Below, one piece after another: positions 44,493 to 60,632 of a DNA stretch of 64,000 bases (within the stretch, counting starts at the first letter, position 1; every line of letters starts with the position of its first letter). The stretch is from a virus. The DNA is taken from the IMG/VR virus record IMGVR_UViG_3300042292_000345, positions 1 to 64,000 of that record. The stretch is one strand, 5' to 3'. Below the pieces are notes generated by a model that saw only the letters and a list, made by a program, of their open reading frames with translations, was not told where the DNA came from and searched no databases. Position numbers and translations under genes: made by a program.

Positions 44493-44750
44493 ATGTTAAT
44501 CAATGAATTAAAACTAGCTAATAAATCTGAAAGATGTTCTTTAGTAATATCTTTATTAGATAAGAACAATACCCCTTGGAGATCCTCTAACAGAGGAATC
44601 CATATCACAGTAGAACGTGAACATTATAAATTAGATATATGGCCTACTACTCTCAAATTTAGGATAACAGAATATCCGTTAGGTGAAGGAAATACTTTCA
44701 GTGGTGCTGAAGAATTCTTAGAAAATCTGGAAAAGTATTTGCGCAAATAA
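44493..44750 (+). CDS. Hypothetical protein
   Basis: AAGGA RBS; ORF track. Confidence 0.7.
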   Translation: MLINELKLANKSERCSLVISLLDKNNTPWRSSNRGIHITVEREHYKLDIWPTTLKFRITEYPLGEGNTFSGAEEFLENLEKYLRK

Positions 44751-44779
44751 TGGTATCTTATATGAATACCATAAGGTAT
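44742..44779 (+). promoter_or_regulatory. Putative phage RNAP promoter P1
   Basis: CGCAAA-taatg-GTATCTTATATGAA-TACCATAAGGTAT, upstream of an RBS. Confidence 0.78.
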
Positions 44780-44804
44780 ATCATAACCCATTAGGAGTAG
44801 TATC

Positions 44805-45245
44805 ATGTTAGTAGAATTAAATAATGCAGCAGGCAATTGTGCAACTTTAGCATTTGGATTAAATGTAGCACTAGAAACAAGATTGTATAAAAGCGGATGG
44901 AGACAATTCTCGTCTGATATAGACTTTAAGACGAAAGGAGAAGCATTGTATAACGCCCTTTTAAGTCCAAGAATTTATCTTGATTTAGAAGATGGCGAAA
45001 GTTGGGATAAATGCAGCTTATCTATTTCAAAATTAAAAATAAAGAGGGGAAGTTCAGATGTTAGAGCTGAAATTGTTGAGCTTAAGGATGGATCTTTTGA
45101 TATAGTAATTGTGTATTCAGTTTTTGATGATGATCTTGGTGATTATAACCTTGATCTTGAAATGAGAGGTGTACACTCTAATCATGAGGATTTATCAGCA
45201 GTTATTAATTGGGCGGCAAGCCTTGGCATTAAATTTGTAAAGTAG
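44805..45245 (+). CDS. Hypothetical protein (acidic)
   Basis: AGGAG RBS directly after P1. Confidence 0.75.
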   Translation: MLVELNNAAGNCATLAFGLNVALETRLYKSGWRQFSSDIDFKTKGEALYNALLSPRIYLDLEDGESWDKCSLSISKLKIKRGSSDVRAEIVELKDGSFDIVIVYSVFDDDLGDYNLDLEMRGVHSNHEDLSAVINWAASLGIKFVK

Positions 45246-45254
45246 GAGAATAGT

Positions 45255-45368
45255 ATGTTAGATTTAATAATAATCAGCGCAGGTTTTGCGGTATGTGTAA
45301 TATGGTTAAGATGTTTTAAAGAACCTACATATGTATTAGGTAAGAACCACATCAGTTTTAAAAAATAA
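45255..45368 (+). CDS. Small membrane protein (37 aa, not in ORF track)
   Basis: AGGAG RBS; MLDLIIISAGFAVCVIWLRCFKEPTYVLGKNHISFKK. Confidence 0.55.
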   Translation: MLDLIIISAGFAVCVIWLRCFKEPTYVLGKNHISFKK

Positions 45369-45384
45369 TTTATTGGAGTAAGTT

Positions 45385-45873
45385 ATGAGAGTTATTAAGA
45401 CACATTTTAAAGATATCATTTTCAATAGTAAAGACAAAGTAGTAGCCGTAAAGAAGTATGCCACACATGCCACTAAGTCCCATAAAAGTATAAAATTAGA
45501 ACCCCCCTATATTTATATGGTTGGAGATAACTATATTGGATATCATAAACTTAGTAATAGGTATGAGGTTGTGACTATTAGAAGAAACAAAGGAGCTGGT
45601 AAATGCCATTTAGCAAACTTTGCTAGTAGGAGTGGTGCTGAAGGTTTTTTAAAGTATCTTTTATTTTCACACTACACTTATAGCGAGTTATTAGAAATGG
45701 CAGGTCTTCCACAAGATCCACGTTATACAGATCGGCCATCCTTCTTTCAATTTGAAAATTCTAATTTTGAATATCCATATAATGATATGTATGCGATTTT
45801 AGATTCAGACATACCTTTGAAACAGCTAAAAATGTTGCAAAAGAGAATTTCAGACTTTTTAAGTGAAAAATAA
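45385..45873 (+). CDS. Hypothetical protein
   Basis: GGAG RBS; ORF track. Confidence 0.72.
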   Translation: MRVIKTHFKDIIFNSKDKVVAVKKYATHATKSHKSIKLEPPYIYMVGDNYIGYHKLSNRYEVVTIRRNKGAGKCHLANFASRSGAEGFLKYLLFSHYTYSELLEMAGLPQDPRYTDRPSFFQFENSNFEYPYNDMYAILDSDIPLKQLKMLQKRISDFLSEK

Positions 45874-45877
45874 AACA

Positions 45878-45915
45878 CGCAAAAACAAGTATCTTATATG
45901 AATACCATAAGGTAT
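45878..45915 (+). promoter_or_regulatory. Putative phage RNAP promoter P2
   Basis: CGCAAA-aacaa-GTATCTTATATGAA-TACCATAAGGTAT; 27 consecutive nt identical to P1. Confidence 0.8.
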
Positions 45916-45950
45916 CTCAATAACTATAATTAACTTTTTGGAGTATTATC

Positions 45951-46121
45951 ATGTTTACAGTTGAAATCAACAGAAAAGCACTTGAATCACAATTAGAGCT
46001 AGCGCAAGCAGCTCTAGATGGCTTAAGAGCAGATGACGTCTTTAAAATGCTGCCAGGTTATTCAGTAATGGTAGCACGTAAAGAACGTGAAATTGAAGAA
46101 TTAAAAATTCGTTTAGCTTAA
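45951..46121 (+). CDS. Small coiled-coil protein (56 aa, not in ORF track)
   Basis: GGAG RBS; MFTVEINRKALESQLELAQAALDGLRADDVFKMLPGYSVMVARKEREIEELKIRLA. Confidence 0.7.
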   Translation: MFTVEINRKALESQLELAQAALDGLRADDVFKMLPGYSVMVARKEREIEELKIRLA

Positions 46122-46138
46122 TTATTTGGAGAGCAGTC

Positions 46139-46426
46139 ATGAGAAGAATCGACCACGCACAAAGAAACATTGCAAGATTATTTAAAACAAGAACAGCAGT
46201 AAATGCTAAATCAGTTAAGAAAGAGTTAGTAAATCCTCTAGTAGCAGGGACTACTGGTGCAGTAGTAGGCGCAACAAGCTTTGCTAGAAATACTAGCTTA
46301 GCACTATCAGTTACCTCTGAGGTAGTTGGTGGTACGGCTGTTGGTATTCTATCAGTAGGTACGTTAGCAACAGCAGGAATCTTAGGGTATGTAGCTTATA
46401 AAGCTGCAAGAAAAATCCTAAGATAA
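46139..46426 (+). CDS. Membrane-associated protein (glycine-zipper-like C-terminus)
   Basis: GGAG RBS; basic N-terminus followed by G/A/V-rich hydrophobic segments. Confidence 0.7.
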   Translation: MRRIDHAQRNIARLFKTRTAVNAKSVKKELVNPLVAGTTGAVVGATSFARNTSLALSVTSEVVGGTAVGILSVGTLATAGILGYVAYKAARKILR

Positions 46427-46433
46427 ACACAAC

Positions 46434-46489
46434 CCAACCTATTAGAGGCCCTTAGGCTCCTAATAGGTTGGTATTTAATTTTTTTTTTT
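46434..46489 (+). terminator. Long hairpin with an 11-T tract
   Basis: CCAACCTATTAG...CTAATAGGTTGG, then TATTTAA and T11. Confidence 0.8.
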
Positions 46490-46511
46490 CTCCACAACTA
46501 AAGGAGGTAAC

Positions 46512-46880
46512 ATGTTAGCATTAGGTTTAAAATGTATGACATTAGCCTTGTATCTCGAAGGCCGAAATCAATCTGAAATGGTTCAGACAAAGCTGGCTGA
46601 AGTAGTAATGGAGAGAGCTGATTGGCAACCTGCTCTCGTTTGTAAAGTATTGAAAGAACCAGCGCAATTCACTGGTTATCCACACAGGGTAAAGCTTCCA
46701 ATACCTAAAAATAAACCCGACAGGGTTGCACTAGTGACTGTAAATAAAGTCGCAAGGAAGGTGATGTTTGGCAGCAGTCGCCCTAAGCATCGTTGTAAGT
46801 TCTTTAATCATAAAAGATTAGGAAAGCGTTTTAATACTAGCAATAATGCAGTCATTGCTGGTGATTTTATATTTTATTAG
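46512..46880 (+). CDS. SleB-like cell wall hydrolase (Hydrolase_2)
   Basis: CMTLALYLEGRNQS...LAEVVMER...VCKVLKEPAQF...GDFIFY pattern with the catalytic Glu present. Confidence 0.75.
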   Translation: MLALGLKCMTLALYLEGRNQSEMVQTKLAEVVMERADWQPALVCKVLKEPAQFTGYPHRVKLPIPKNKPDRVALVTVNKVARKVMFGSSRPKHRCKFFNHKRLGKRFNTSNNAVIAGDFIFY

Positions 46881-46888
46881 GAGGATAT

Positions 46889-47023
46889 ATGGAGTACGCA
46901 GTATTAGGTCTATTAGTAGTAAATACGCTGTTACTATTAGCAGTATTTGGGGGAATCAGAATGGTAATAAGTTTACAAGACTCTATAAGCCAAGTTCTTA
47001 TCAAAGGCAATAGTATTCATTAA
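46889..47023 (+). CDS. Small membrane protein (44 aa, not in ORF track)
   Basis: AGGAGG RBS; MEYAVLGLLVVNTLLLLAVFGGIRMVISLQDSISQVLIKGNSIH. Confidence 0.6.
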   Translation: MEYAVLGLLVVNTLLLLAVFGGIRMVISLQDSISQVLIKGNSIH

Positions 47024-47063
47024 CACTAACAAAGACAGAGGACTGTCTATTTTGGAGGCATTT

Positions 47064-47399
47064 ATGCTACCGTTTATATTGGGAGTTGTAATTGGCGCAG
47101 CCTTTACTAGCTCTAAGCGATACGATCGAGAGATCAATAAAATATTAAAAACACGAAAAACAAGGCTACAAAATCTTAGACAACAACCACAAATAACGCT
47201 TGAGGGTATGGAATACGATTCAAAAGCAAAAGAGTACTTTGTGTCTATGATAACTGTTGATAGAAATACTTTTACACTTAGTACAATTCCTATTATGCTG
47301 AATGAGGTAAAATACTATTCAGTAATAATAAAGAATCAAGTAAGACCATTTTTAATTGACAAACTTGAACGCCTAAAGTTGCAAGACTTTATGGGCTAG
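47064..47399 (+). CDS. Hypothetical protein with N-terminal hydrophobic anchor
   Basis: GGAGG RBS before ATG47064 (MLPFILGVVIGAAF...). Confidence 0.7.
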   Translation: MLPFILGVVIGAAFTSSKRYDREINKILKTRKTRLQNLRQQPQITLEGMEYDSKAKEYFVSMITVDRNTFTLSTIPIMLNEVKYYSVIIKNQVRPFLIDKLERLKLQDFMG

Positions 47400-47449
47400 A
47401 CTAACTCTATGAGGCGGTGCAGCTCATAGGGTCTTGCAGTATTTTTCAT

Positions 47450-47486
47450 GACCTCCCTTCGGGGAGGTCTCCTTATTTTTTTTTTT
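47450..47486 (+). terminator. UUCG-loop hairpin with an 11-T tract
   Basis: GACCTCCC-TTCG-GGGAGGTC, then TCCTTA and T11. Preceded by another hairpin at 47404-47432. Confidence 0.8.
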
Positions 47487-47495
47487 AGGAATTAT

Positions 47496-47612
47496 ATGAA
47501 ATACTGTATGACACTAACTGCATCACTCATGATACTAGGGCCAACACACCAAGCGTTATTTATGGGTACTTTAATTTATCTTTATTGCGTAGGTAAGAAA
47601 TATGTTGGTTAG
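47496..47612 (+). CDS. Possible small hydrophobic protein (38 aa)
   Basis: AGGA RBS; MKYCMTLTASLMILGPTHQALFMGTLIYLYCVGKKYVG. Confidence 0.4.
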   Translation: MKYCMTLTASLMILGPTHQALFMGTLIYLYCVGKKYVG

Positions 47613-47647
47613 ATTAATATTATTACTATTGATATCGGAGGCAATTA

Positions 47648-49714
47648 ATGGAAGTAGCAACGATAGAAACGCTGTATCTGTATACAAGACCAAAAAGAAG
47701 CGGTGATCCAATTCTATTTGCAGAGCTTATTACAGCTATGGGTAGGGCACTTTCAGATTCTAGATGTTCGACTGAAAGAGCCAGAATTGGTGCTAACTTT
47801 ATTTACAATCTAGAAGAGCAGTGTATTCTAGAACTTCAACTGAATCAAGATAATCAATATATAATTAAGATTATCAATGATGCATGGATCTTAGATATAA
47901 TGAGGAAGTGTGTAAAGATCCATCACAGTACTTTTCCTTCTCTACTACCATATGATGACTGGGATAAATTTTATCATAGTACAGGTGCTAAACTAATAAA
48001 AAGTAAAGCACCAGAATTGAAAAAGATAAGCCCTAATACTCATCCTATTGTATTTGATAGTATTAACAGGTCTCAAAGTGTTGGTTGGAATATCAATAAA
48101 AGAATTCTACCAATAGCTGAGTGGTGTCTGAAAAGACAAGAAGCGGCTTTTAGTGATATCTGGAATCAAGTAAAGAAAGAAGCTAAAGCAACAAAGTCTA
48201 GAGAGTCTAAGACAATCATTCAGATTGCTAAAGAGTTTATTAATTCAACTTTTTATCATCTGTATTATCTTGACTTCCGTGGCAGGTGTTATCCAACTAC
48301 TGCATACCTTCACGAGCAAGGTTCAGATCTAGCAAAGGGTTTATTACTCAGAGCTGATAAGAAAAGAATCGGTGAAGGTGGTTATAGATGGTTATGTATC
48401 AGTATAGCATCTAACTGGGCAGGTGCAAGTGGTCGTCCAGATGGTGCAAAGACTGATAAGATTCCTATGTTAGAAAGGTATCAATGGACTCAAGCAAATC
48501 TAGATGTGTTGCTTAGCTATGCCAGAGATCCTCAGAAGAACAAAGGATGGATGGATGCTGATAAGTGTTGGCAGTTTCTAGCAGCTTGTATAGAGCTAAA
48601 GAAAATACATGATACTGTATTATATCATGGAGCAAATATTTATGATTATGAAAGTCATCTAGAATGTTTTATAGATGGCTCAACTAATGGCTCACAGCAT
48701 CTGGCAGCACTTACTAGAGATGAAGTAACAGCACCATATGTTAACTTAGTACCTAGTAGACTGCCTGGTGATTTATATACGTATGTTGCAAACTCTATAT
48801 GGAAATTTGTCAGTGTTACGTTAGCTGATCTAGATCCCAATCTAGTAGCTGCAGCAGAAGTATTTGTAGATACTATAATTGAAATGAAAGCACAAGTTAG
48901 AAACACTGAACCTAGAAGTGAACTAAGAAAAGCGCATTCAGAGAAATTACAGTATTATAGGAATCAATATCACTATCTAGAAGAGACAGCAGCTTTTGTC
49001 TTCTGGAATAGAGTTAAAGATTTAAAAGAACGAAGAAAGATCGTTAAACGTGGTGTAATGACTTTACCATATGGCGGGACTTCTTACGGTCTTGGAGAGC
49101 AGGTTCTAGAAGACTCTAAAAAGCATGGAATAGATCTCTTAAAAGATCTTGATATGAAATGGGGCACTTTCATGGGTAGACTTATCTTTATGAACTGTAA
49201 AGATTCATTAAAGAATCCTATGAAACTTCTAGATATATTTAGTAAAGCAGGAGTGAAGGCTGAAAAAAGAGATGAGTATCTTTCTTGGACAGTACCTGTA
49301 ACTAAGTTTCCTGTAATCCAGCATTACGATGAAGGTACAATAAAGAAAGTGTTAATTATGTATGGGGGTAGAGAATTAAAGATATCTATCTATCACTCTG
49401 AGTTTCCTACTAAAGCTAAAAGGAAGCAAGGGCAAGGAGCAGCACCTAATATTGTTCATTCACTTGATGCAGCACATCTAATGCTTACTAAAGTAACTTG
49501 TCCATTTACAGTAACAACTATTCACGATTCTTATGGATGTTTGTTAGCTGATATGGATGATTTATTTAGAATAGTTAGAGAGACATTTGTAGATCTTTAT
49601 AGAGTAAATCCATTAGATTATTTGATGGAAGAAATTCAAGGAGATATGAGTGGTTTAGAAATCGGTGCGCTAGATATCAATAGTGTACTAAAATCAGAAT
49701 ATTGCTTTAGTTAA
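47648..49714 (+). CDS. T7-like single-subunit DNA-directed RNA polymerase (compact, 688 aa)
   Basis: DFRGRCY (48272), motif A DGSTNGSQH (48674), motif B RKIVKRGVMTLPYG (49034), PNIVHSLDA (49445) and motif C IHDSY (49520). GGAGG RBS. Confidence 0.95.
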   Translation: MEVATIETLYLYTRPKRSGDPILFAELITAMGRALSDSRCSTERARIGANFIYNLEEQCILELQLNQDNQYIIKIINDAWILDIMRKCVKIHHSTFPSLLPYDDWDKFYHSTGAKLIKSKAPELKKISPNTHPIVFDSINRSQSVGWNINKRILPIAEWCLKRQEAAFSDIWNQVKKEAKATKSRESKTIIQIAKEFINSTFYHLYYLDFRGRCYPTTAYLHEQGSDLAKGLLLRADKKRIGEGGYRWLCISIASNWAGASGRPDGAKTDKIPMLERYQWTQANLDVLLSYARDPQKNKGWMDADKCWQFLAACIELKKIHDTVLYHGANIYDYESHLECFIDGSTNGSQHLAALTRDEVTAPYVNLVPSRLPGDLYTYVANSIWKFVSVTLADLDPNLVAAAEVFVDTIIEMKAQVRNTEPRSELRKAHSEKLQYYRNQYHYLEETAAFVFWNRVKDLKERRKIVKRGVMTLPYGGTSYGLGEQVLEDSKKHGIDLLKDLDMKWGTFMGRLIFMNCKDSLKNPMKLLDIFSKAGVKAEKRDEYLSWTVPVTKFPVIQHYDEGTIKKVLIMYGGRELKISIYHSEFPTKAKRKQGQGAAPNIVHSLDAAHLMLTKVTCPFTVTTIHDSYGCLLADMDDLFRIVRETFVDLYRVNPLDYLMEEIQGDMSGLEIGALDINSVLKSEYCFS

Positions 49715-49723
49715 GGAGAGCAA

Positions 49724-50113
49724 ATGAAAGAATTTAAAGATATTAAAGATTTAGAAAATTTACCACACGTAGACAATCTTATTGACGTTATTACAGATAG
49801 TCTTGATATTGATACAGCTTTAGATTTTATTGCTGGATTTTCTTTCATGTCTATTTTTGGGGGTAATCTATTCCTGATTGAGACTAAAGAGGACTTGAAA
49901 AGTGTCTGTCCTGATTTAGAATCAGATGAAGGTTATATAACGCCTTTTGATACATACGACTATGTTACTGACCTACCTACTAGTGATAAAAAGCTGTACC
50001 ATTTGCTCACTATTATTAATAACAACTCTGGTGGACCGACTTACATTGTCCCTTCAGAGCTTGTAGACCAAGATGTAGAATTTCTTATTGCAGCAGTATT
50101 AGCGCAAAATTGA
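49724..50113 (+). CDS. Hypothetical acidic protein
   Basis: AAGGAG RBS; ORF track. Confidence 0.75.
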   Translation: MKEFKDIKDLENLPHVDNLIDVITDSLDIDTALDFIAGFSFMSIFGGNLFLIETKEDLKSVCPDLESDEGYITPFDTYDYVTDLPTSDKKLYHLLTIINNNSGGPTYIVPSELVDQDVEFLIAAVLAQN

Positions 50114-50122
50114 GAGGATATT

Positions 50123-50398
50123 ATGAAAGTATTAAAACAAGTTGAAGCATTTAACACTACAGCTGAAGATATAGAAGAGCTATTTCGCATTATGTATCAT
50201 TGTGAAAAATTCACCTTCAATGGGCATCAGATAGTAGGTTTGACATTTGATCAAAACGGTCTTAAAATTACTGTATTAATTAACGCTGTTAAATTTACTG
50301 TTAATCTTAATCCAGAAACAATATTAGTACTTGACGGACATAGATTATCTATGGTTACTAGAAAGGTTTTCAATAAGGAGTACATTAAATGGGCATGA
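50123..50398 (+). CDS. Hypothetical protein
   Basis: GAGG RBS; ORF track. Confidence 0.7.
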   Translation: MKVLKQVEAFNTTAEDIEELFRIMYHCEKFTFNGHQIVGLTFDQNGLKITVLINAVKFTVNLNPETILVLDGHRLSMVTRKVFNKEYIKWA

Positions 50399-50580
50399 TG
50401 ACAGCTAATATAGTGTCACACAGTATTACAAATGATTCTGATGAGTTGCTGATAGAGTTGTTTGTAGAAGAGAAAGATGTGTTTAACATCTATATTGCTA
50501 AAGATGATATGTCTATTGAAGACATTAAATGTATTTTTGGCGCACTTAACTCTGTTTACAATAAGTTAAACGGAAAATAA
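50389..50580 (+). CDS. Hypothetical protein
   Basis: AAGGAG RBS; overlaps the upstream stop. Confidence 0.65.
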   Translation: MGMMTANIVSHSITNDSDELLIELFVEEKDVFNIYIAKDDMSIEDIKCIFGALNSVYNKLNGK

Positions 50581-50603
50581 TCTAATCTCTAAGGAGAACT
50601 AAA

Positions 50604-51152
50604 ATGGCATTACCAGTACCTGAATTGAAAACAAAAGTTGTAATCCGTGACGTAGTATTGAAATACGCCCATCTAGGTCGTCCAAGCGGAAAGTTCACTC
50701 CTGAGAATCCTACATACGAGGTTAATATTACTACGTATGATATGGATGTAAAGAAATTGCTACAAGCAATGGGTGCAAAAGTAGAGACCGATGTTGAAGA
50801 AGAAAGCGGAAAAGCCTGCCATTCTACTACACTTCGGAGTAAATCTTTGAATGTAAAAACAGGTGAGAAGATGATACCACCAACAGTAGTAGGTATGAAT
50901 AAGCTTCCAATAGATCCTAATATTATTGGTAATGGTTCTATTGGTGATGTTGTTATTTCTTCTTACGCATACACTTTCAAAGAAAAGAAAGGTACTGCAG
51001 TAAATCTACATGCAGTTAGAGTTAAAGTTCTTCACAAGTATGAAAGAGCAGAGTCTAATAGCCTTGACTTATTTGAAGATGATGATTCAGAAACTGTAGT
51101 AATTGAATCTGAAGAAGCATCTGCAGATGATTTTGATGATATGCCTTACTAG
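50604..51152 (+). CDS. Single-stranded DNA-binding protein (T7 gp2.5-like)
   Basis: IGNGSIGDV...AVRV OB-fold pattern; acidic tail ending in an aromatic residue (DDFDDMPY). Confidence 0.82.
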   Translation: MALPVPELKTKVVIRDVVLKYAHLGRPSGKFTPENPTYEVNITTYDMDVKKLLQAMGAKVETDVEEESGKACHSTTLRSKSLNVKTGEKMIPPTVVGMNKLPIDPNIIGNGSIGDVVISSYAYTFKEKKGTAVNLHAVRVKVLHKYERAESNSLDLFEDDDSETVVIESEEASADDFDDMPY

Positions 51153-51160
51153 GAGCTGAT

Positions 51161-51460
51161 ATGGTTAATGAAGAGATCAAGAAAGAAGGTAGTCCATATA
51201 AGGGCAGTGAAGCATATCACTACCAGAGTTATATAGACGACTACCAGTGGATTGAAGCCATTGGAAGAATGCCTAATTTTAGAGAACTATCTAATGGTAA
51301 ATTCTTTGGAGTAGTCGAAGTATTGGCTAGAAAATATCTAGATAGATTAGGTAAGAAAGACGACCCTGTTCAGGAATTAGATAAAGCTATTTGGTATTTA
51401 AGATATCTTAGAGCTTGTATTAAAACTAACAGTGTTGCAGATCCTAAAAATATGGAGTAA
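51161..51460 (+). CDS. DUF3310 / T7 gp1.7-like protein
   Basis: HY...WIEAI...KYLDRLGKKD...ELDKAIWYL motif. Confidence 0.8.
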   Translation: MVNEEIKKEGSPYKGSEAYHYQSYIDDYQWIEAIGRMPNFRELSNGKFFGVVEVLARKYLDRLGKKDDPVQELDKAIWYLRYLRACIKTNSVADPKNME

Positions 51461-51462
51461 GT

Positions 51463-51627
51463 ATGTTTTATAATAGAGACATCGACGTAGATAGAGAGAA
51501 CTGTGATTATCCTGAAAGTACTGATAATTGGGATGAAGATGATGGTGTTATTGTAGGTGCACATTCTTACAATAAAAACTGCTCTTGCTATCTATGTGAT
51601 CCACCAGGATTTATGCCAGGTGATTAA
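51463..51627 (+). CDS. Small acidic Cys/His-rich protein (54 aa, not in ORF track)
   Basis: GGAG RBS; MFYNRDIDVDRENCDYPESTDNWDEDDGVIVGAHSYNKNCSCYLCDPPGFMPGD. Confidence 0.6.
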   Translation: MFYNRDIDVDRENCDYPESTDNWDEDDGVIVGAHSYNKNCSCYLCDPPGFMPGD

Positions 51628-51635
51628 GTAATTAG

Positions 51636-51667
51636 AGCGCCCTAGTGACAGTAGGGCGTTTTTATTT
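51636..51667 (+). terminator. Intrinsic terminator before DNA polymerase
   Basis: AGCGCCCTA-GTGACAG-TAGGGCGTT-TTTATTT. Confidence 0.75.
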
Positions 51668-51677
51668 GGAGATATTT

Positions 51678-53561: not shown

Positions 53562-53569
53562 GGGGATTT

Positions 53570-53866
53570 ATGAACACACAAGAAGCATTACTAGTAATGG
53601 TTGCTGAGGAAGCAGCTGAAGTTGCACAAGCAGCATGTAAGTGCCTAAGATTTACTCCAAATCACGTTTATAGTGAGTATAAGAAAAGTAATATGGATAG
53701 GCTTTTAGAAGAACTAACAGATCTGACAGCAACTGTTGGATTACTTATGTCTAATATTAACAAAGAGGATATAGATATGGAGTTGATAAGTGAAAGTACT
53801 AGAATAGCAATGCAACGTAAAATTAAAAGCCTACAAGTATCTAAAATTGTAGGAGCAGTAAAATGA
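53570..53866 (+). CDS. MazG-like nucleotide pyrophosphohydrolase
   Basis: EEAAEVAQAACK...LLEELTDL (EExxE / ExxD) pattern. Confidence 0.75.
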   Translation: MNTQEALLVMVAEEAAEVAQAACKCLRFTPNHVYSEYKKSNMDRLLEELTDLTATVGLLMSNINKEDIDMELISESTRIAMQRKIKSLQVSKIVGAVK

Positions 53867-54654
53867 GTCTATATGCACTAGTAGATGGTGATGTAATTGT
53901 TCATTTAAGCTGTCCTAGTAGAAGAGCTTTCCATGATATTGATCCAGATCTTCCAGATGATGAAGTTGAGTACTCTTTGGAAGATGATGAAAAGTATTTA
54001 TCTGCTATCTTCTCAATCTACAAGAATAAGATAAATAATATTGTTCAGACTCTTTTTGTAGATAAAGTTCTAGTAGCTGTAAAATCTGAAAGTAATTTTA
54101 GATATAATGTCTCATCAGCCTATAAGAGCCACCGTATTAATAAACCAGGTGGTGAAATGGTTGCTGCATTACGTAGACGAGTACTGGAAGAAAATCTAGC
54201 AGTATGCCTTCCAGACTACGAGGCAGACGATCAACTTAGAATCTGGGCTGAAACACTTAGGGAAATGGGAGACGATTTCATAGTTGTAACTATTGATAAA
54301 GATCTCAAAATGATTGGAGGAAACTTCTATAATCCTAAGAGTTGTATCTCATTTGAAGTCCTACCTAGAGAAGCAGCTTTTAACTATTATCAGCAAATTC
54401 TAATGGGTGATGCTGTTGATAACATTAAGGGTATTCCTAAAATCGGTCCTAAAAAGTCTGAGAAAATACTAGATCATTGTAGAACTCATAAAGACTTTAA
54501 AGAGGCAGTAGACACTCAGTACATTATGGCATTTGGAGATAATTGGATGCAAGAACTAGAAGTAACAGGTAAGCTTATTCATTTAAGTAGATTTATTGGA
54601 GACCAATTCAACCTAGAGGAGTGGTTTGATGACCGTTCAACAGCCGTTATTTAA
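53863..54654 (+). CDS. 5'-3' exonuclease (T7 gp6-like)
   Basis: LVDGD, NFRY...YK, EADD, IDKDL and GDAVDNIKGIPKIGPK motifs. Confidence 0.92.
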   Translation: MSLYALVDGDVIVHLSCPSRRAFHDIDPDLPDDEVEYSLEDDEKYLSAIFSIYKNKINNIVQTLFVDKVLVAVKSESNFRYNVSSAYKSHRINKPGGEMVAALRRRVLEENLAVCLPDYEADDQLRIWAETLREMGDDFIVVTIDKDLKMIGGNFYNPKSCISFEVLPREAAFNYYQQILMGDAVDNIKGIPKIGPKKSEKILDHCRTHKDFKEAVDTQYIMAFGDNWMQELEVTGKLIHLSRFIGDQFNLEEWFDDRSTAVI

Positions 54655-55081
54655 TGGTCACTGGAGTTTTGAAGAACCTATGGGCGGTGCTGGCTATGTT
54701 GGTTTTATTTATATTATCAAGATATGGCCAGAAGGTAAGTTATATCTAGGTAAGAAACATTACCAAGTATCTAGAGGTAAATCGAAAGGGGATGAATCTA
54801 ATTGGAGATTCTATTGTTCTAGTAGTGATGCTATGAAGAAAATCGTATCTATCTACGGAATGCAGGATTTAGAATTCATTTGCCTTGAGCAATACAAGAC
54901 TAAGTCAGGCCTAAGCTATGCTGAAACTAAGTCTTTAGTATTAGTAGACGCGCCTTTAACTGATATGTGGCTTAATAAGAGAATTGAAGAAGTCGCATGG
55001 AATGTAAAAGAGCCAATGTCTGATCGACACTACAACAAACTGATGGAGATGAATTTGTGGCGACAAAAGGCACATTCGTAA
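54626..55081 (+). CDS. GIY-YIG-like endonuclease
   Basis: GFIYII...LYLGKK...ESNW..Y.SSS...YAE pattern. Confidence 0.65.
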   Translation: MMTVQQPLFNGHWSFEEPMGGAGYVGFIYIIKIWPEGKLYLGKKHYQVSRGKSKGDESNWRFYCSSSDAMKKIVSIYGMQDLEFICLEQYKTKSGLSYAETKSLVLVDAPLTDMWLNKRIEEVAWNVKEPMSDRHYNKLMEMNLWRQKAHS

Positions 55082-56709
55082 GACACACACACTGTGACAA
55101 ATGCGGTAGTAGTGATGCCAAAGCTTTATATAGTAATGGTAGCGCTTTCTGCTTTAAATGTGGTAAGTACTTTAAATCCGAGGAAGAAGAAGTGCAAGCA
55201 ACTAAGATAGTGGTAAATAAGAAAGATGATAGCGCAAGAATTGACGATATCCTGAAATTACCTTTTAAAGGGATGGCATCCAGAAAAATAACCAAGGAGA
55301 TATTTGAGTTCTTTGAAGTCAGGAGTGAAGTAAATGAAGACGGTAGTATTAAGAAGCATTTTTATCCTTACGGGGATGATGCCTTTAAAGTTAGAACGAT
55401 TGAAGATAAAAGATTTCAATGGATCAACAACTCTACCACCTTATTTGGAATGGATAAATTTCAGCAAGGTGGTAGAAGACTTATTATAACTGAAGGTGAG
55501 CTAGATGCTATGAGTGTAGCGCAAGCATGTTTACTTAAGTATGATAAGATCTTTCCTGTTATCTCTTTACAGAGTGCTACAGGTAAGAAGTCATTTGCTG
55601 CAAATCGTGATTGGATCATGAGCTTTGGAGAGATTATTCTTTTCTTTGATCAAGATGAAGCAGGTAAAGAAGCACTAGAATATGCAATTAAGGCTTTAGA
55701 TATTAGTAAGTTAAAGATTGTAGAAAGTCCTGAAAAGGATGCTAGTGATATGCTAGTCAAACATGGTGTTGAACCTTTATATAAATGTATCTGGGAGGCT
55801 CATAAATATGTGCCAGCTGGATTTATTAGTAAAGATGAGATCTGGAAAAGACTAGTAGAGTATAACGAAAAGCCGTCTATCAAGTATCCTCCATGTCTTG
55901 AAGGTATTAATACTAAGACTAAAGGCTATCGTGATGGTGAGATTGATTTGTTTATATCAGGTACTGGCAGTGGTAAGAGTACCTTAATTAGAGAAATCAT
56001 TTTATCAGCACTTGAGAATACAGATCGTATGGTAGGTGTCATGGCACTGGAAGAATCACCAGAAGAAACTGTTAGAAAACTAGTAGCCATGAAGCTATGT
56101 ACTAATCCTGTGTATCAACCATTAACACCTGATGAAATGCATGCACCATATCAGGAGCTGATGAAAGATGACAGATTGATGTTACTTGATCATCAAGGTG
56201 CTATTTCAGATATTGGTAGTATTGCTAGTAAATTAGAGTATATGGCTTTGATGGGTTGTAAAAGTATCTTTATTGACCATATAACTATGCTAGTGAGTGA
56301 AGGTACTGAAGAACTAACAGGTAATGAAGCTACTGATAAGATTATGAATATGCTGCTTAGGTTTAGTAAAAAGCATAATGTTCATGTTGGTGTTGTTTCA
56401 CATTTAAGAAAAGCACCAAATGGTTCTAAATCATTTGAAGAGGGTAAGATACCTTCTGTAGATGATATCAGAGGTTCTGGTAGTATTAAACAAGTTTCTC
56501 ATACAATTATTGCATTTGCTAGAAACCTAGTAGCAGATACAGCAGAGGAACAAAATGTAATTAAGATAAGTATACTTAAGTGCAGATTTACGGGTCTTAC
56601 AGGTGCTGTTAGAGGTTCTAGATATATACCAGATACTGGTAGGCTAGAAATGAATGACGAGTCATTGAATGAAATTAGTTCACTATTTGATTATAAGGAA
56701 GAAGGATGA
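55057..56709 (+). CDS. Primase-helicase (T7 gp4-like)
   Basis: Zn finger CDKC...CFKC, TOPRIM ITEGELDAMS / FDQDEAG, Walker A SGTGSGKST, IFIDHI, VSHLRK and DIRGSGSIKQ. Confidence 0.95.
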   Translation: MATKGTFVRHTHCDKCGSSDAKALYSNGSAFCFKCGKYFKSEEEEVQATKIVVNKKDDSARIDDILKLPFKGMASRKITKEIFEFFEVRSEVNEDGSIKKHFYPYGDDAFKVRTIEDKRFQWINNSTTLFGMDKFQQGGRRLIITEGELDAMSVAQACLLKYDKIFPVISLQSATGKKSFAANRDWIMSFGEIILFFDQDEAGKEALEYAIKALDISKLKIVESPEKDASDMLVKHGVEPLYKCIWEAHKYVPAGFISKDEIWKRLVEYNEKPSIKYPPCLEGINTKTKGYRDGEIDLFISGTGSGKSTLIREIILSALENTDRMVGVMALEESPEETVRKLVAMKLCTNPVYQPLTPDEMHAPYQELMKDDRLMLLDHQGAISDIGSIASKLEYMALMGCKSIFIDHITMLVSEGTEELTGNEATDKIMNMLLRFSKKHNVHVGVVSHLRKAPNGSKSFEEGKIPSVDDIRGSGSIKQVSHTIIAFARNLVADTAEEQNVIKISILKCRFTGLTGAVRGSRYIPDTGRLEMNDESLNEISSLFDYKEEG

Positions 56710-57737
56710 GTGTAAGTATATTATCACCTAATTATGTAGGTGCAAAACCAACAATGTTGATCCCTAAAGAAACGTACACGTACGATTATCCTCGGGCAAT
56801 TGAGTTTGCTAAAGAACAAGTTAAGATTCTTTGGCCACCTGATGAGATTGATGTAACAAAAGATATTCACGATATTAAGACAAGGCTTACAGAGGCTGAA
56901 TATCACGGAATGGTTACTGTGTTAAAGTTATTTACACTGTATGAACAAAAAGTCGGACAAGACTACTGGGCAGGTTATTTCTGTAAAGTATTCAAGAGAC
57001 CTGATTTAAGACGTATGGCTAATTGTTTTAGTTTCTTTGAAGATAATATTCATGCAGTATTCTACAATCGCATTAATGAACTACTAGGTCTTAATACAGA
57101 TGAATTTTATTCGTCTTATAAAGATATTGAAGTTCTTGCAGGGCGTATGAAGTTTATTGAGGAGCTTGTTGGAAAGAAACATGATATCAACGATATTTTA
57201 GTATCAGTTGGTACTATGAGTATGATTGAAGGTGCTATCTTGTTTGAGGGCTTCTCTTACATTAAACATTTCAATAGTACTGGTAAGAGTAAATTACTTA
57301 CATTAAACAGTGGTATTGACTTTTCTATTGATGATGAGAGTATTCATGCACTAGCAGGTGCTTGGTCTTTCAATCAGCTACTTCATGAAGCAGTAACAGT
57401 TGAGGTAGCAGAGTTAGATCTTGATTATGTACATGATACCTTAATTAAGAATGCTGAATGGCTATACGAGCATGAGTGTCTTATTAATGATAAGATTTAT
57501 GAGAAAGGGGAGCCTGATAATATCAGTAAAAAGGCTTCTAATATCTTCATTGGTCACAGATTGAACAGATGCTTAGAGAACATGAATCTTCCTACTATCT
57601 TTAGTGAAGAAGGTAATAGTATTGCTAAATGGTTCTATAGGGATCTTAAATCTAGTGTCCTACATGACACATTCATTACACAGGGCTCTGATTATTCAAG
57701 AGCATGGAACAGAGATAAATTTGGATGGAAAAAATAA
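56706..57737 (+). CDS. nrdB: Ribonucleotide reductase class I, small (beta) subunit
   Basis: FTLYE, E..IHAVFY (radical Tyr), IEGAILF, DESIH and C-terminal Tyr (GSDY). Confidence 0.92.
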   Translation: MSVSILSPNYVGAKPTMLIPKETYTYDYPRAIEFAKEQVKILWPPDEIDVTKDIHDIKTRLTEAEYHGMVTVLKLFTLYEQKVGQDYWAGYFCKVFKRPDLRRMANCFSFFEDNIHAVFYNRINELLGLNTDEFYSSYKDIEVLAGRMKFIEELVGKKHDINDILVSVGTMSMIEGAILFEGFSYIKHFNSTGKSKLLTLNSGIDFSIDDESIHALAGAWSFNQLLHEAVTVEVAELDLDYVHDTLIKNAEWLYEHECLINDKIYEKGEPDNISKKASNIFIGHRLNRCLENMNLPTIFSEEGNSIAKWFYRDLKSSVLHDTFITQGSDYSRAWNRDKFGWKK

Positions 57738-57738
57738 T

Positions 57739-59457
57739 ATGAGTACGATTTATGATAAATTAGATCTTGAAAGACATGCCCTTCAAAAAGAAGGTAAGTT
57801 ACCTTTATGGTTCAAAACAGCAGGCTGGCAGTTATTTAAAGAGAAAGTAGCAACAGAAGAGTACCCTGATTTTCTATCAGTAACTAAAAGAGTAGCAGAT
57901 GCTGCTGCTAAATTTACTGATGAACCTTCATTCTATAGTGAAAAGTTCTTTGAGATTATCTGGAATGGTTGGTTAGGTATGTCAACACCTGTAATGTGTA
58001 ATATGGGTGTTCCTAGTGGTAAGGCACAAGCAGTATCTTGCAGTGGTGGTACAGTTAAAGATTCAGTAGCAGCATTCTATGATTCATTGAAAGAGTGTGC
58101 TTTGCTATCTCAGCAAGCTTATGGTACTAGCTACTATTTAGGTGAGATTAGACCTAGAGGAGCAGCTATTAGTGGCGTAAAGGGCACGGCAAGTGGCCCA
58201 TTGAATGTATTTGAGGATATTATTAAAGTAGCTCAACATATTACGCAAGGGTATCAAAGACGTGGTGCAGTAGCCTCTTATATCGAGATAGATCATCCTG
58301 ATGCAAGAGAGATATTAACTTTCTGCAAGAACAACCCAGAGGATGCTAATTTGGGTTGGTGCATTAGTGATGCTTTTATTGATAAACTCAAAGCTGGTGA
58401 CAAAGAAGCAAATGAGATGTTAAAAGATGTTATTATGCTACGTATGTTTCCTGGTATCGGATATATGATGTTCCCTGATAAGATCAATCGTAAACCAGTA
58501 GCAGCTTATGAAAGAAGAGGAATTAAAGTAAGAGCATCTAATCTATGCACTGAAATTGCTCTTTTCTCTGGAACAGATCATACAACTGGAAAAGAGTATA
58601 CTTTTAGCTGTGTATTATCTTCTATGAATGCAGCAACCTTTGATGAATGGAAAGATACTAATGCAGTATTCTTTGCAACAGTATTCTTAGATTGTATCAA
58701 TCAAAGTCAAATTGAAGGTCTGAAAGGTAAGCCTACATTTGAAAAGATTGTAAACTTTGCTGAAGATACTAGAGCACTTGGCTTGGGTCTGATGGGTTTC
58801 CATACTTATCTTCAAGCTAATAACATGGAGTATGCTGAGCTACAGTCACAATTCAAACTAAGAGAAATTTTAGGTCATATGAATTCTGAAAGCTTAAGAG
58901 CATCTCAATGGATGGCTAAGAACTGGGGTGAGCCTGAATGGTGTAAAGGACTAGGTCTTAGAAATACGCATAGAATGTGTATTGCGCCTAACTTATCTTC
59001 TTCACTAATTCTTGGTGGTGTCTCTCAGGGTATTGGTCCGATCTATAAGAATGCTTACGTTCAGCTAACACCTGTAGGTAAAGTTGAGAGAGCTTCACCA
59101 GCGTTAATGAAGATCATGAAAGAACGTGGAATTGACTTCGAAAAGGCTTCTGAAAGAATTGTTAATAATGGAGGGTCAGTTCAATATGAGGACTATTTAA
59201 CTGATAAAGAAAAGCAAGTATTTCTAACAGCCTTTGAGATCAATCAATTTGATATTCTTAGAATGGCAAGTATTGCTCAAAGAGACTTAGATCAGATGCA
59301 AAGCATTAATCTATATTTTGCGGCTGAAGAAGATGAGGAATATATACGTGATGTTCATCAAGCTGCAATAGAAGATGAGTATATACATTCATTGTATTAT
59401 GTAAGAGGTACCAAAGGCGTTAGTACACATAAAGAATGTACTAGTTGTCACGGGTAG
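57739..59457 (+). CDS. nrdA: Ribonucleotide reductase class I, large (alpha) subunit, no ATP cone
   Basis: AVSC, SNLCTEI, SCVLSS, IAPN, SLYY and C-terminal CxxC (ECTSCHG). Start ATG57739 follows the nrdB stop. Confidence 0.95.
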   Translation: MSTIYDKLDLERHALQKEGKLPLWFKTAGWQLFKEKVATEEYPDFLSVTKRVADAAAKFTDEPSFYSEKFFEIIWNGWLGMSTPVMCNMGVPSGKAQAVSCSGGTVKDSVAAFYDSLKECALLSQQAYGTSYYLGEIRPRGAAISGVKGTASGPLNVFEDIIKVAQHITQGYQRRGAVASYIEIDHPDAREILTFCKNNPEDANLGWCISDAFIDKLKAGDKEANEMLKDVIMLRMFPGIGYMMFPDKINRKPVAAYERRGIKVRASNLCTEIALFSGTDHTTGKEYTFSCVLSSMNAATFDEWKDTNAVFFATVFLDCINQSQIEGLKGKPTFEKIVNFAEDTRALGLGLMGFHTYLQANNMEYAELQSQFKLREILGHMNSESLRASQWMAKNWGEPEWCKGLGLRNTHRMCIAPNLSSSLILGGVSQGIGPIYKNAYVQLTPVGKVERASPALMKIMKERGIDFEKASERIVNNGGSVQYEDYLTDKEKQVFLTAFEINQFDILRMASIAQRDLDQMQSINLYFAAEEDEEYIRDVHQAAIEDEYIHSLYYVRGTKGVSTHKECTSCHG

Positions 59458-59466
59458 TAAACATTG

Positions 59467-59490
59467 GGGGTGCTTTCGAGCGCCCCTTTT
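59467..59490 (+). terminator. Intrinsic terminator after nrdA
   Basis: GGGGTGCT-TTCG-AGCGCCCC-TTTT. Confidence 0.85.
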
Positions 59491-59503
59491 ATTCGGAGAT
59501 TCT

Positions 59504-59707
59504 ATGAAACTTAAAAACAATCACACATATGTTACACGTAATGGCAAGATGAGAATTCAAGTAAAGAAAACTCATGACTTATTTGAAGAGTATTTTAAGG
59601 CTGATATGGAGGGTCTGCCAGGTCTTATATGGAGTGTTGAAGGTAAGTTTCTTAGTCCTTTTAGTGGCTATGAACATTTAGATTTAATCCAAGAATCAAG
59701 AAAATAA
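59504..59707 (+). CDS. Small protein, YxTR...DLxxE paralogue family
   Basis: MKLKNNHTYVTRNG...W...G...HLDLIQE. Confidence 0.72.
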   Translation: MKLKNNHTYVTRNGKMRIQVKKTHDLFEEYFKADMEGLPGLIWSVEGKFLSPFSGYEHLDLIQESRK

Positions 59708-59711
59708 AACG

Positions 59712-59736
59712 CGCAAAAGGGGGTATCTTATATGAA
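59712..59736 (+). promoter_or_regulatory. Putative phage RNAP promoter P3
   Basis: CGCAAA-agggg-GTATCTTATATGAA; same spacing as P1 and P2. Confidence 0.75.
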
Positions 59737-59773
59737 ACAATAAAAGATATCCCTTTTTAATTTGGAGTATAAC

Positions 59774-59947
59774 ATGAATACATTTGATATATTGGCTTTA
59801 AGACAGTCTGAAATAATCTACGTGAAAAATCGTGGACCACAGTTACATTTCTCAAAGATTATAAATCTATTGGGAATGCAACGAGCAGCTAAAGGCACTG
59901 TCCGTAAGTATTACCATAACGGTAACACAATTACAATTTATAACTAG
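59774..59947 (+). CDS. Hypothetical protein
   Basis: GGAG RBS before ATG59774 (MNTFDILAL...). Confidence 0.65.
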   Translation: MNTFDILALRQSEIIYVKNRGPQLHFSKIINLLGMQRAAKGTVRKYYHNGNTITIYN

Positions 59948-59956
59948 GAGAATAAC

Positions 59957-60187: not shown

Positions 60188-60196
60188 GAGAATAAC

Positions 60197-60397: not shown

Positions 60398-60398
60398 C

Positions 60399-60608: not shown

Positions 60609-60632
60609 TATAATTATAATTTGGAGAACATC

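Follow-up and report, generated by a model that had tools for sequence, protein, structure and literature searches.

A conserved bipartite motif, M1, as a candidate early promoter in siphoviruses that encode two RNA polymerases

Introduction

The bipartite motif described here, M1, is almost certainly a promoter, judged from its sequence conservation in a family of tailed phages from lakes and the sea that encode two RNA polymerases (RNAPs) of their own. The genes behind it are most likely the first to be transcribed by a virion-delivered polymerase. That M1 is a promoter tied to phages with their own polymerases is strongly supported by cross-genome conservation, strand, position, and a constant site upstream of the gene for a small RNAP. 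The more specific reading preferred here, with a probability of about one half, is that M1 would be a double-stranded early promoter read by a virion-delivered fusion of a Phage_Mu_F head-protein domain and a T7-fold RNAP (MuF-RNAP), with transcription starting at the G of GAA.

To our knowledge, virion-delivered RNAPs are known in detail from very few systems, namely N4, the giant phages phiKZ/AR9, crAss-like phages, and P23-45. M1 adds a clearly delimited candidate promoter from a lineage not studied so far, in which a T7-fold enzyme is joined to a MuF head protein in siphoviruses; a literature search found no description of transcription in these phages. If the assignment to MuF-RNAP is correct, the enzyme and M1 would be a new orthogonal pair of polymerase and promoter, in which recognition is of double-stranded DNA at an unusual bipartite site, and the question would arise why bacteria keep M1 in their own chromosomes.

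M1 copies at gene boundaries

The stretch analysed (the window) comprises positions 1 to 64,000 of IMG/VR record IMGVR_UViG_3300042292_000345. An earlier note on this DNA had reported three copies of a motif at gene boundaries, and a rescan of the window for CGCAAA-N5-GTATCTTATATGAA returned exactly three matches with no mismatches, all on the + strand, at the same positions and with the same spacers. By chance 0.02 copies are expected, and none of 100 shuffles reached three. A fourth site with up to three mismatches was not found in the window, and the whole 77,325-bp genome holds the three copies only, with no extra copy of the 14-mer even at one mismatch. The copies and the units downstream of them are as follows.

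44740 to 44766, + strand: M1 copy 1, TGCGCAAA, spacer TAATG, GTATCTTATATGAA (original motif 44742 to 44766)
45878 to 45902, + strand: M1 copy 2, CGCAAA, spacer AACAA, core
59710 to 59736, + strand: M1 copy 3, CGCGCAAA, spacer AGGGG, core (original motif 59712 to 59736)
44805 to 46426, + strand: four small ORFs with no family match (146, 162, 56, and 95 aa), downstream of copies 1 and 2
46436 to 46489, + strand: hairpin and T11, terminator-like end of the unit of copies 1 and 2
47450 to 47486, + strand: hairpin and T11, terminator-like, 160 nt upstream of the small RNAP gene
59774 to 60791, + strand: five small ORFs with no family match, downstream of copy 3
60824 to 60883, + strand: 18-bp hairpin and T12, terminator-like end of the copy 3 unit

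All three copies do lie at gene boundaries, with an ATG 37 to 48 nt further on. Copy 1 overlaps the stop codon TAA (44748 to 44750) of the ORF at 44493 to 44750, and copies 2 and 3 each begin 4 nt past a stop, of the ORFs at 45385 to 45873 and 59504 to 59707, respectively. The next ATG is 38, 48, and 37 nt past the last base of copies 1, 2, and 3, preceded in each case by a GGAG ribosome-binding site (for copy 3 the start codon was taken as ATG 59774, not TTG 59762 of the mechanical ORF list). The clusters of small genes that had been said to follow the motif were recovered as well, as ORFs without family match downstream of copies 1 and 2 and of copy 3. Two terminator-like sites separate copies 1 and 2 from the small RNAP gene, so that transcription of that gene from M1 presupposes read-through. 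RNA run X24, the one run with related sequence, yielded contigs only, namely motif-sized fragments from other contigs and three short contigs at 47080 to 47638, with no ends.

Consensus and conservation among phages

A consensus was drawn from 48 unique copies picked solely by the 12-mer GTATCTTATATG. In this fuller form M1 consists of an A-rich tract, yGCGCAAA, a 5-nt spacer with a final purine, and GTATCTTATATGAA. The upstream CG is invariant though outside the selection criterion, with C and G found 11 and 10 nt upstream of the core in 48/48 and 47/48 copies; a G stands ahead of it in 42/48, about 40/48 have the three A's of the upstream block, and a purine closes the spacer in 48/48. The 6-nt and 14-nt blocks first described are thus real, while the spacer is less free than had been described and the motif is longer. 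Nor is M1 wholly unlike the T7 consensus, as had been claimed, since its 3′ half (a specific hexamer, the AT-rich TTATAT, and a G) follows the T7/SP6 layout.

Exact M1 recurs in 23 other IMG/VR contigs and in 97 stretches of metagenome DNA, and the sequences flanking it are unrelated. Ten full genomes (GC 36–47%) contain 26 copies of the 12-mer core, 26/26 on the gene strand, and in 10/10 the nearest M1 is 1.1–3.5 kb upstream of the gene for a small T7-type RNAP, so that the small RNAP cannot be required for its own first expression. M1-bearing contigs span 27–65% GC, with about 22 near-invariant positions in the motif, and 8/8 complete ones encode both RNAPs. There are one to six copies per genome, all ahead of early genes. 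As expected of a T7-type RNAP promoter, M1 is long, nearly invariant, directional, multi-copy, intergenic, and co-oriented with genes, and a cognate T7-fold RNAP is encoded in the same genome, which has two such enzymes. As expected of early promoters of the N4 virion-RNAP type, few copies upstream of early genes, including the second RNAP, are found in 10/10 genomes.

The carriers are a family of siphoviruses distantly related to Naomviridae. A nucleotide search of a phage collection gave no match. In EBPR siphovirus 1, the MuF-RNAP of which is 55.6% identical, neither M1 nor a second motif, M2 (see below), is present in the 50 kb examined of the partial record, a part with no annotated RNA polymerase or replication gene.

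Two polymerases and a second motif

The two enzymes are encoded in the window as follows, and the same genome encodes T7-like replication genes.

4216 to 8940, + strand: MuF-RNAP fusion, 1574 aa, with an N-terminal Phage_Mu_F head-protein domain and a C-terminal T7-fold RNAP; candidate M1 reader
47648 to 49714, + strand: small T7-type RNAP, 688 aa, aligning to T7 RNAP residues ~313–883, with a shortened N-terminal domain

MuF-RNAP retains polymerase motifs A, B, and C. Its polymerase part is predicted to fold like full-length T7 RNAP (model pLDDT 83), and a fold search matched it to T7 RNAP and mitochondrial RNAP over ~1100 alignment columns; PDB sequence searches with MuF-RNAP returned no match, and only the fold search found relatives. 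The family has 161 representatives among 1.84 billion proteins. The fusion to a Phage_Mu_F domain and the place of the gene between portal and capsid genes suggest that the enzyme is packaged and injected.

In the proposed model, MuF-RNAP would be packaged in the head via its MuF domain, enter the cell with the DNA, and recognise double-stranded M1 by a GCGCAAA block near −23 to −17 and the hexamer GGTATC at −12 to −7, with TTATAT as the melting segment. Starting at the G of GAA, it would transcribe short cassettes of small take-over genes and, reading through T-tract terminators, the small second RNAP gene as well. The small RNAP would then read another promoter class (M2 in most relatives) ahead of replication and structural genes. 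Packaging and injection of MuF-RNAP, the identity of the enzyme that binds M1, and the start site are points that we infer.

M2 (CCCGTTAAATTAACCC, roughly 19 nt) is found in eight genomes, those with a long specificity loop in the small RNAP, and lies directly downstream of the small RNAP gene and ahead of capsid genes. It is absent from G000 and G005, where the loop is 12 residues shorter; in the phage studied here, 12 residues present in M2-bearing relatives are missing from this region. A position matrix, k-mers shared with G005, and mismatch searches revealed no convincing counterpart of M2 in G000. G000 and G005 are sister genomes, so that the link of M2 to the loop amounts to one evolutionary event. 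M1 is unchanged in all ten genomes, regardless of the loop of the small RNAP, and the region of MuF-RNAP equivalent to the specificity loop is collinear and conserved in all ten. M1 is invariant where that region is conserved and altered in the roseophage DSS3_VP1, a comparison of two states only.

These observations bear on whether M1 is instead read by the small 688-aa RNAP, with M2 or something else as the promoter of the virion enzyme. Both enzymes are T7-type, the small cassettes could be middle genes, and in some relatives M2 precedes both the M1 cluster and the small RNAP gene. However, M1 is identical on both sides of the 12-residue loop indel and it is the presence of M2 that tracks the loop; the small RNAP is without ~200 residues of the T7 N-terminal promoter-binding domain; and M2 follows directly on the small RNAP gene, just as T7 RNAP promoters follow gene 1 in T7. 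Reading of M1 by the small RNAP is accordingly very improbable.

The earlier proposal of a promoter for the virion-delivered RNAP has thus gained support as far as a promoter of phages with their own RNAPs is concerned. As to the reader, MuF-RNAP fits the small RNAP gene downstream of M1, the covariation of M2 with the small loop, and its own conserved loop region. Points against the model include the terminator-like sites ahead of the small RNAP gene, the M2 copy that several relatives also have upstream of that gene, and the distance of 14 kb between copy 3 and the other M1 copies, unlike the clustered early promoters of N4.

Hairpins around M1

Three predicted structures adjoin or enclose the copies.

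44764 to 44782, + strand: predicted 5′-terminal RNA hairpin ATACC-ATAA-GGTAT, starting at the proposed +1 of copy 1
45900 to 45918, + strand: the same ATACC-ATAA-GGTAT hairpin after copy 2
59715 to 59758, + strand: inverted repeat enclosing the copy 3 core, then TTTTT (z −4.0 and −5.3)

The RNA hairpins after copies 1 and 2 have z values of −1.9 and −2.9, and an RNA hairpin begins 0–4 nt after the G of GAA in 23/48 M1 copies, which lends indirect support to the start near GAA that had been proposed. An inverted repeat around the core is shared by copy 3 and one copy in the relative G005 and is not common to M1.

Such structures could point to M1 not being a promoter at all and serving as a regulator or recombinase site, or as an element that acts in RNA, for instance in processing or termination. 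The hairpin of copy 3 with its T's, a palindromic TTGCGCAA in a subset of copies, and a loose resemblance to Xer/dif arms are in keeping with this. Against it, the whole motif is directional and always on the sense strand, with a ribosome-binding site 25–50 nt further on (or else a leader); many copies have CTGCGC or ACGCGC in place of the palindrome; copies 1 and 2 have no terminator structure, so that a GC-rich hairpin with a T run is seen at copy 3 alone; the spacing is 3 bp off dif; and Rfam finds no RNA family at bacterial M1 loci. A non-promoter role is therefore very improbable.

Several specific identities were rejected. A Xer/dif-like site has arms 3 bp closer together, and M1 occurs as several co-oriented copies; sigma54 on the reverse strand would have its spacing off by one, GA in place of GG, and an orientation opposite to all genes; and PurR, ArgR, or RcsB boxes show half-site likeness only. 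An N4-type hairpin (5–7 bp stem, 3-nt loop, conserved bases centred near −11) was also rejected, as copies 1 and 2 form no DNA hairpin between −30 and +5 (MFE 0 to −0.6 kcal/mol, z > 0, both strands).

Comparison with known systems

N4 resembles these phages in combining a virion polymerase with a small second T7-type RNAP that has a shortened N-terminal domain (RNAPII, 673 aa, versus 688 aa here; PMC4496689), and in about three near-identical early promoter copies, with early units leading to the second polymerase gene. The N4 early promoters P1–P3, however, take the form of DNA hairpins, in which a GC-rich loop is centred at −11, and require gyrase and SSB (PMC4496689), whereas M1 copies 1 and 2 form no hairpin and the M1 copies do not cluster at a single end of the genome. 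The virion enzyme also differs, being a 1574-aa MuF fusion in a siphovirus, with a fold nearest to T7 and mitochondrial RNAPs, and not a 3500-aa podovirus protein. The small RNAP here is one chain, and most relatives have a well-defined ~19-nt candidate promoter for it, M2.

With the 23-bp promoters of T7, T3, and SP6, M1 shares a conserved, directional, multi-copy, intergenic sequence comprising a hexamer, an AT-rich segment, and a G, in a genome with a cognate T7-fold enzyme and T7-like replication genes. It differs in its extra GCGCAAA block beyond −17, its semi-free 5-nt spacer, and its low copy number (1–6, all before early genes). T7-group promoters diverge quickly along with their polymerases, whereas M1 is invariant across enzymes ~56–68% identical.

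A virion structural protein fused to an RNAP that transcribes the earliest genes, including a second, non-virion RNAP, is proposed here and has parallels in Thermus phage P23-45, with its tape-measure-fused virion RNAP, and in gp66 of crAss-like phages. Those enzymes are two-barrel, cellular-type RNAPs (PMC10770324; 10.1101/2020.03.07.982082), whereas MuF-RNAP has a T7 fold, and its fusion partner is a head protein, not a tail protein.

The cultured Naomviridae roseophage DSS3_VP1 (NC_055826; PMC8323127) has the same order of portal, MuF-RNAP, capsid, tape measure, small genes, RNAP, T7-like replication genes, and RNR. By sequence comparison it is an independent lineage with an M1 variant at the same place: three copies of GGCATCTATAATGAA stand at the start of the block leading to its RNAP, and there are 11–12 copies of an M2-like motif. 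Its MuF-RNAP is only 31% identical, the core differs at 4/15 positions, and the upstream block is GTGAGAAAACTAA. If the M1 model is correct, later transcription starts in DSS3_VP1 would be expected at CGTTAAAGAGGGG sites; the predictions are directly testable in vitro and in DSS3_VP1 cultured on Ruegeria pomeroyi.

Bacterial copies and the host polymerase

Intact M1, upstream CG included, also occurs in the chromosomes of Proteobacteria, ahead of single uncharacterised genes or of short units that end in a terminator. Queries that do detect both RNAPs in phages detected neither in those genomes, which speaks for a host-read promoter. M1 is retained across bacterial orthologues of 51–89% identity, and something must read it there. 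The phages could then have copied a promoter type already used by some bacterial genes and mobile cassettes, and M1 would be an early promoter read by host RNAP, perhaps with a host factor binding GCGCAAA.

Parts of the sequence agree with this, since the core includes TATCTT, with the A and T that count most in a −10 hexamer, and TATAAT occurs in the DSS3_VP1 variant. The layout agrees as well, with three copies before an RNAP gene. In T7, the tandem promoters A1–A3 stand upstream of early genes and gene 1, the phage RNAP gene, followed by terminators, and are read by host RNAP. Those promoters have canonical sigma70 −35/−10 elements, however, and the dissimilarity of M1 to such elements, asserted from the start, was upheld: there are no −35/−10 hexamers 16–18 bp apart, no −35 element at any allowed spacing (GCGCAAA would fall within the spacer), and no call at M1 in a sigma70 scan, in which promoter-like sites were not enriched. 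No single −10 register suits M1 and the DSS3_VP1 variant alike, and ~22 near-invariant positions across hosts, in contigs of 27–65% GC, are untypical of sigma70 promoters. M1 is moreover very rare in bacteria (10 stretches in 185,579 species genomes), the full site being found in 1/201 genomes of one order, the seed genome only, and a host-read M1 would leave the virion RNAP without an assigned promoter. Host reading is on balance less likely than reading by MuF-RNAP.

A more doubtful suggestion is that the proteobacterial single-gene cassettes (three protein families and short terminator-ended RNAs) might be infection sensors or satellites, silent until the injected RNAP of an invading phage transcribes them. 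They would then be a bacterial parallel to provirophage genes with giant-virus late promoters. The proteins downstream of bacterial M1 belong to no named family in Pfam, NCBIfam, PADLOC, or a protein atlas, and Rfam reported only a tRNA at these loci. A motif in G227 was rejected as M1, its upstream block being missing and its 14-mer within chance expectation. The neighbourhoods of the bacterial copies include CoA-transferase, GGDEF/EAL, MFS, and TonB receptor genes.

M1 in the genome of the window

The record, of which the window is the first 64 kb, is 77,325 bp long with a 127-bp terminal repeat. It was sampled from lake water and is the genome of a siphovirus, with genes all on the + strand; its 3960-aa tape-measure ORF implies a very long tail.

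Features of the window's genome
+ strand: portal gene
4216-8940, + strand: MuF-RNAP, 1574 aa, Phage_Mu_F domain and RNA_pol domain
14854-26736, + strand: tape-measure protein, 3960 aa, TMP_3 and SLT domains
+ strand: large tail proteins, then a small-ORF block
47648-49714, + strand: T7-type small RNAP, 688 aa
+ strand: T7-like replication genes (gp2.5-like SSB, DNA polymerase, exonuclease, primase-helicase, RNR, ligase)
+ strand, beyond the replication genes: terminase

The earlier note described a three-copy bipartite motif (here M1) on the + strand at gene boundaries, preceding clusters of small genes, and both statements hold. A window scan for CGCAAA-N5-GTATCTTATATGAA returned three exact matches, all on the + strand (44742, 45878, and 59712), against 0.02 expected from shuffles of the window; no further site with up to three mismatches was found in the window, nor any other copy of the 14-mer in the full 77,325-bp record. 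Copy 1 overlaps a stop codon and copies 2 and 3 start 4 nt past one, with a GGAG-type ribosome-binding site and ATG 37-48 nt beyond M1 in each case. Copies 1 and 2 head the small-ORF block, with the small RNAP gene following 2.9 kb downstream of copy 1 and 1.8 kb downstream of copy 2. Copy 3 stands before a cassette of five ORFs that separates the RNR genes from the ligase. The units behind them are closed by hairpin and T11/12 sites. Seven T11-12 tracts, all on the + strand and in the non-structural half (window 46479, 47476, 60872; genome 64393, 65581, 67073, 68631), look like an unusually uniform terminator class, five lying directly 3′ of strong hairpins.

Conservation and shape of M1

In an exact scan of IMG/VR, 23 other contigs carried the 20 specified bases of M1, within flanks of unrelated sequence. 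Both polymerases have homologues in each of the eight M1 contigs that are rated complete (42-67% identity to the small RNAP of the window, 56-68% to its MuF-RNAP). Nine relatives were assembled in full, making ten genomes with that of the window (GC 36-47%). The motif search of the genome and of MuF-RNAP relatives that had been proposed found the 12-mer core GTATCTTATATG 26 times in the ten genomes, invariably on the gene strand (chance about 0.01 per genome), and in all ten the distance from the small RNAP gene back to the closest M1, on its upstream side, is 1.1-3.5 kb.

A logo was derived from 48 unique copies chosen by the core only, the upstream block not being a selection criterion. C at 11 nt and G at 10 nt before the core occur in 48 and 47 copies, a G precedes this CG in 42, the AAA of the block is present in about 40, the final spacer base is a purine in all 48, and an A-rich tract lies farther upstream. 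Because the unselected block recurs and the spacer ends in a purine, M1 is an element of about 30 bp whose spacer is only partly free; the spacer is less variable and the element longer than first described.

M1 as a promoter

M1 is directional, sense-oriented, and intergenic, lies a short fixed distance 5′ of ribosome-binding sites, and is conserved across genomes, so that its reading as a promoter, judged from sequence, is well supported. Stem-loops a few bases from the 5′ end can stabilise bacterial mRNAs, and RNA beginning at the G of GAA would carry a hairpin starting 0-4 nt from that G in 23 of the 48 copies (z below -1.5); a transcription start at or adjacent to this G would fit, since hairpins begin there. 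The other copies have a short leader straight to the ribosome-binding site.

X24, a freshwater metatranscriptome run, is the only RNA data set with related sequence, and consists of assembled contigs with no ends shown. Two of its records (1 and 6, not this phage) hold M1-like stretches with 3 and 2 differences, so M1-bearing sequences are present in an RNA library, where DNA carry-over is possible. One of these stretches is 4 nt from its contig end.

The unlikeness to sigma70 -35/-10 elements asserted in the earlier note was confirmed: a sigma70 consensus scan calls none of the three sites, no candidate -10 has a -35 at a permissible spacing, and GCGCAAA would be in the spacer. Two M1 regions have no excess of sigma70-like sites (25 against 25.6 expected and 11 against 20.4). 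An N4-type promoter was likewise rejected. A DNA hairpin is the defining feature of N4 early promoters (PMC4496689), and copies 1 and 2 form none on either strand between -30 and +5 (MFE 0 to -0.6 kcal/mol, z above 0). Copy 3 is enclosed by an inverted repeat of 15 bp with a run of T's behind it (z -4 to -5); this is a local feature, since only one other copy, in the relative G005, is so arranged.

The polymerase that reads M1

The best available explanation, to which we give a probability of about 0.5, is that M1 is read by the MuF-RNAP, predicted to be delivered in the virion. The small RNAP gene is downstream of M1 in every one of the ten genomes and, judging from this gene order, M1 must be transcribed at first without its product.

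A candidate promoter of the small RNAP is M2, a conserved, intergenic motif (consensus gACCCCGTTAAATTAACCC, variants GTTAGATTAACCC and GTTAAATTAATGAT; also written gACCCCGTTA(A/G)ATTAACCC) present in eight of the ten genomes (G004, G006, G007, G012, G016, G019, G020, and G021; e.g., the end of locus L096, and L028-L065) and not found in the window's genome (G000) or its sister G005. In five genomes M2 lies within about 12 nt past the MuF-RNAP stop codon, ahead of capsid genes, and in G012, G004, and G020 additionally 0.7-2 kb past the small RNAP gene. The small RNAP was mapped on T7 RNAP, and the specificity-loop region was aligned over the ten genomes. A long loop (GPPxGxRxSTGYY...) is common to the eight M2 genomes, whereas G000 and G005, without M2, have a 12-residue deletion in this region; M1 is identical in all ten, and the equivalent MuF-RNAP region (PWVNFDGK...NILQVPQKT) is collinear and conserved in all ten. 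Because M2 follows the loop change while M1 and the MuF-RNAP region stay constant, this would fit a small RNAP that reads M2 and a MuF-RNAP that reads M1, as evidence from one evolutionary event, G000 and G005 being sisters.

MuF-RNAP keeps polymerase motifs A, B, and C and has no sequence-level match in the PDB. The predicted model of its polymerase part (pLDDT 83, pTM 0.80) matches T7 and mitochondrial RNAPs over about 1100 alignment columns (E ~1e-17, probability 1.0), by which it is predicted to be a full-length T7-fold enzyme. The small RNAP is without roughly 200 residues of the T7 N-terminal domain. The phage would work like N4, P23-45, and crAss-like phages with their two-polymerase programmes, but its promoter would be double-stranded and bipartite with a T7 layout, and the enzyme a T7-fold polymerase fused to MuF.

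In some relatives (G004, G005, G014, G017, and G019) both RNAP genes are in 2-7 pieces, several RNAP matches are reported with internal stop codons, and the MuF-RNAP match in EBPR siphovirus 1 contains a gene for an HNH endonuclease, which suggests that polymerase genes carry introns, inteins, or homing-endonuclease insertions.

An independent lineage

DSS3_VP1, a cultured roseophage (Naomviridae, host Ruegeria), has the gene order of the window's genome and a MuF-RNAP 31% identical. It carries three copies of GGCATCTATAATGAA, a sequence that shares 11 of 15 positions with the M1 core; two of the copies lie straight after the tail genes, heading a small-gene block toward its RNAP. An M2-like motif, ATAGGGTGCGTTAAAGAGGGGGA, occurs 11-12 times, so both promoter classes seem to be ancient in the phage group. 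The M1 core is altered here, where MuF-RNAP has diverged. Positions common to both lineages (GG, ATCT, and ATGAA) form no consistent sigma70 -10 hexamer. Two papers on DSS3_VP1 do not discuss phage RNA polymerases or promoters.

M1 in bacterial chromosomes

A prokaryote scan with one genome per species returned ten M1 stretches: one belongs to the phage contig G007, which had been binned with a MAG, one (L072) is a 2.6-kb fragment with small same-strand ORFs, and eight lie amid ordinary bacterial genes in Gamma- and Alphaproteobacteria MAGs. One Cellvibrionales MAG has four copies. The upstream CG is kept in all 13 copies of these bacterial genomes. A scan of metagenomes yielded 97 stretches. 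Roughly half of the returned loci share proteins with the phage family, the remaining longer annotated contigs have M1 among chromosomal genes, for example those for CoA-transferase, AMP-binding enzyme, GGDEF/EAL, MFS, and TonB receptor, and many others are fragments too short to assign to a source; some short high-GC contigs may come from the early regions of phages in the group that themselves have a high GC content, such as EBPR siphovirus 1 (55% GC).

Protein families behind exact M1 in bacterial loci (L066-L093, L105-L180, L200-L203)
'NTGGG' family: 150-210 aa, Lys/Ala-rich tail
'MLTITDGG/MQLITH/MLTFKS' family: about 120-135 aa
Third family: about 150-210 aa, hydrophobic N-terminus

Terminator-ended units of roughly 35-75 nt likewise recur behind M1, and on larger annotated contigs families and units occupy ordinary Proteobacteria chromosomal neighbourhoods. 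The families have no match in Pfam, NCBIfam, or PADLOC. M1 is rare in bacteria, the full site occurring only in the seed genome among 201 genomes of the Cellvibrionales MAG's order. One family has homologues in 13 of 401 genomes of that order; those of at least 51% identity keep M1 with 0-2 changes though their leaders differ, which argues that M1 is under selection in bacteria too, and distant homologues have no M1.

That something in the bacterium, the host RNAP, reads M1 would account for this retention across homologues and for intact M1 in bacterial genomes (incomplete MAGs) where neither phage RNAP was found with queries that do match in the phages; we consider it rather unlikely. Less likely still, the bacterial cassettes would be transcribed solely upon injection of the polymerase by a phage of this group. 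Reading by MuF-RNAP is preferred to a host reading.

Other features of the genome

Tandem repeats of 132 bp span the record ends (window 1-260; genome 76800-77325, or L004 ~16800-17325), and the array continues the frame of ORF 2-325. Since the 127-bp direct terminal repeat sits within this array, it may have arisen as an assembly overlap inside a repeat and would then not mark a real terminus.

The DNA polymerase gene lies between a nucleotide-kinase-like ORF and one for a MazG-like NTP pyrophosphohydrolase (window 51161-51460 and 53570-53866). In the syntenic DSS3_VP1, dT is replaced by dU (PMC8323127), and a nucleotide kinase occupies the same place as the kinase-like ORF. By this analogy modified DNA is possible in the window's genome and, if present, would be a reason to carry a virion RNAP.

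Immediately 5′ of the packaging genes, a 605-nt AT-rich non-coding region (genome 68250-68854; L004 8250-8854), rich in the short repeated words TCTTTAAGG, TTAGATCT, and TTTAGATATAA, is a candidate origin or regulatory region.
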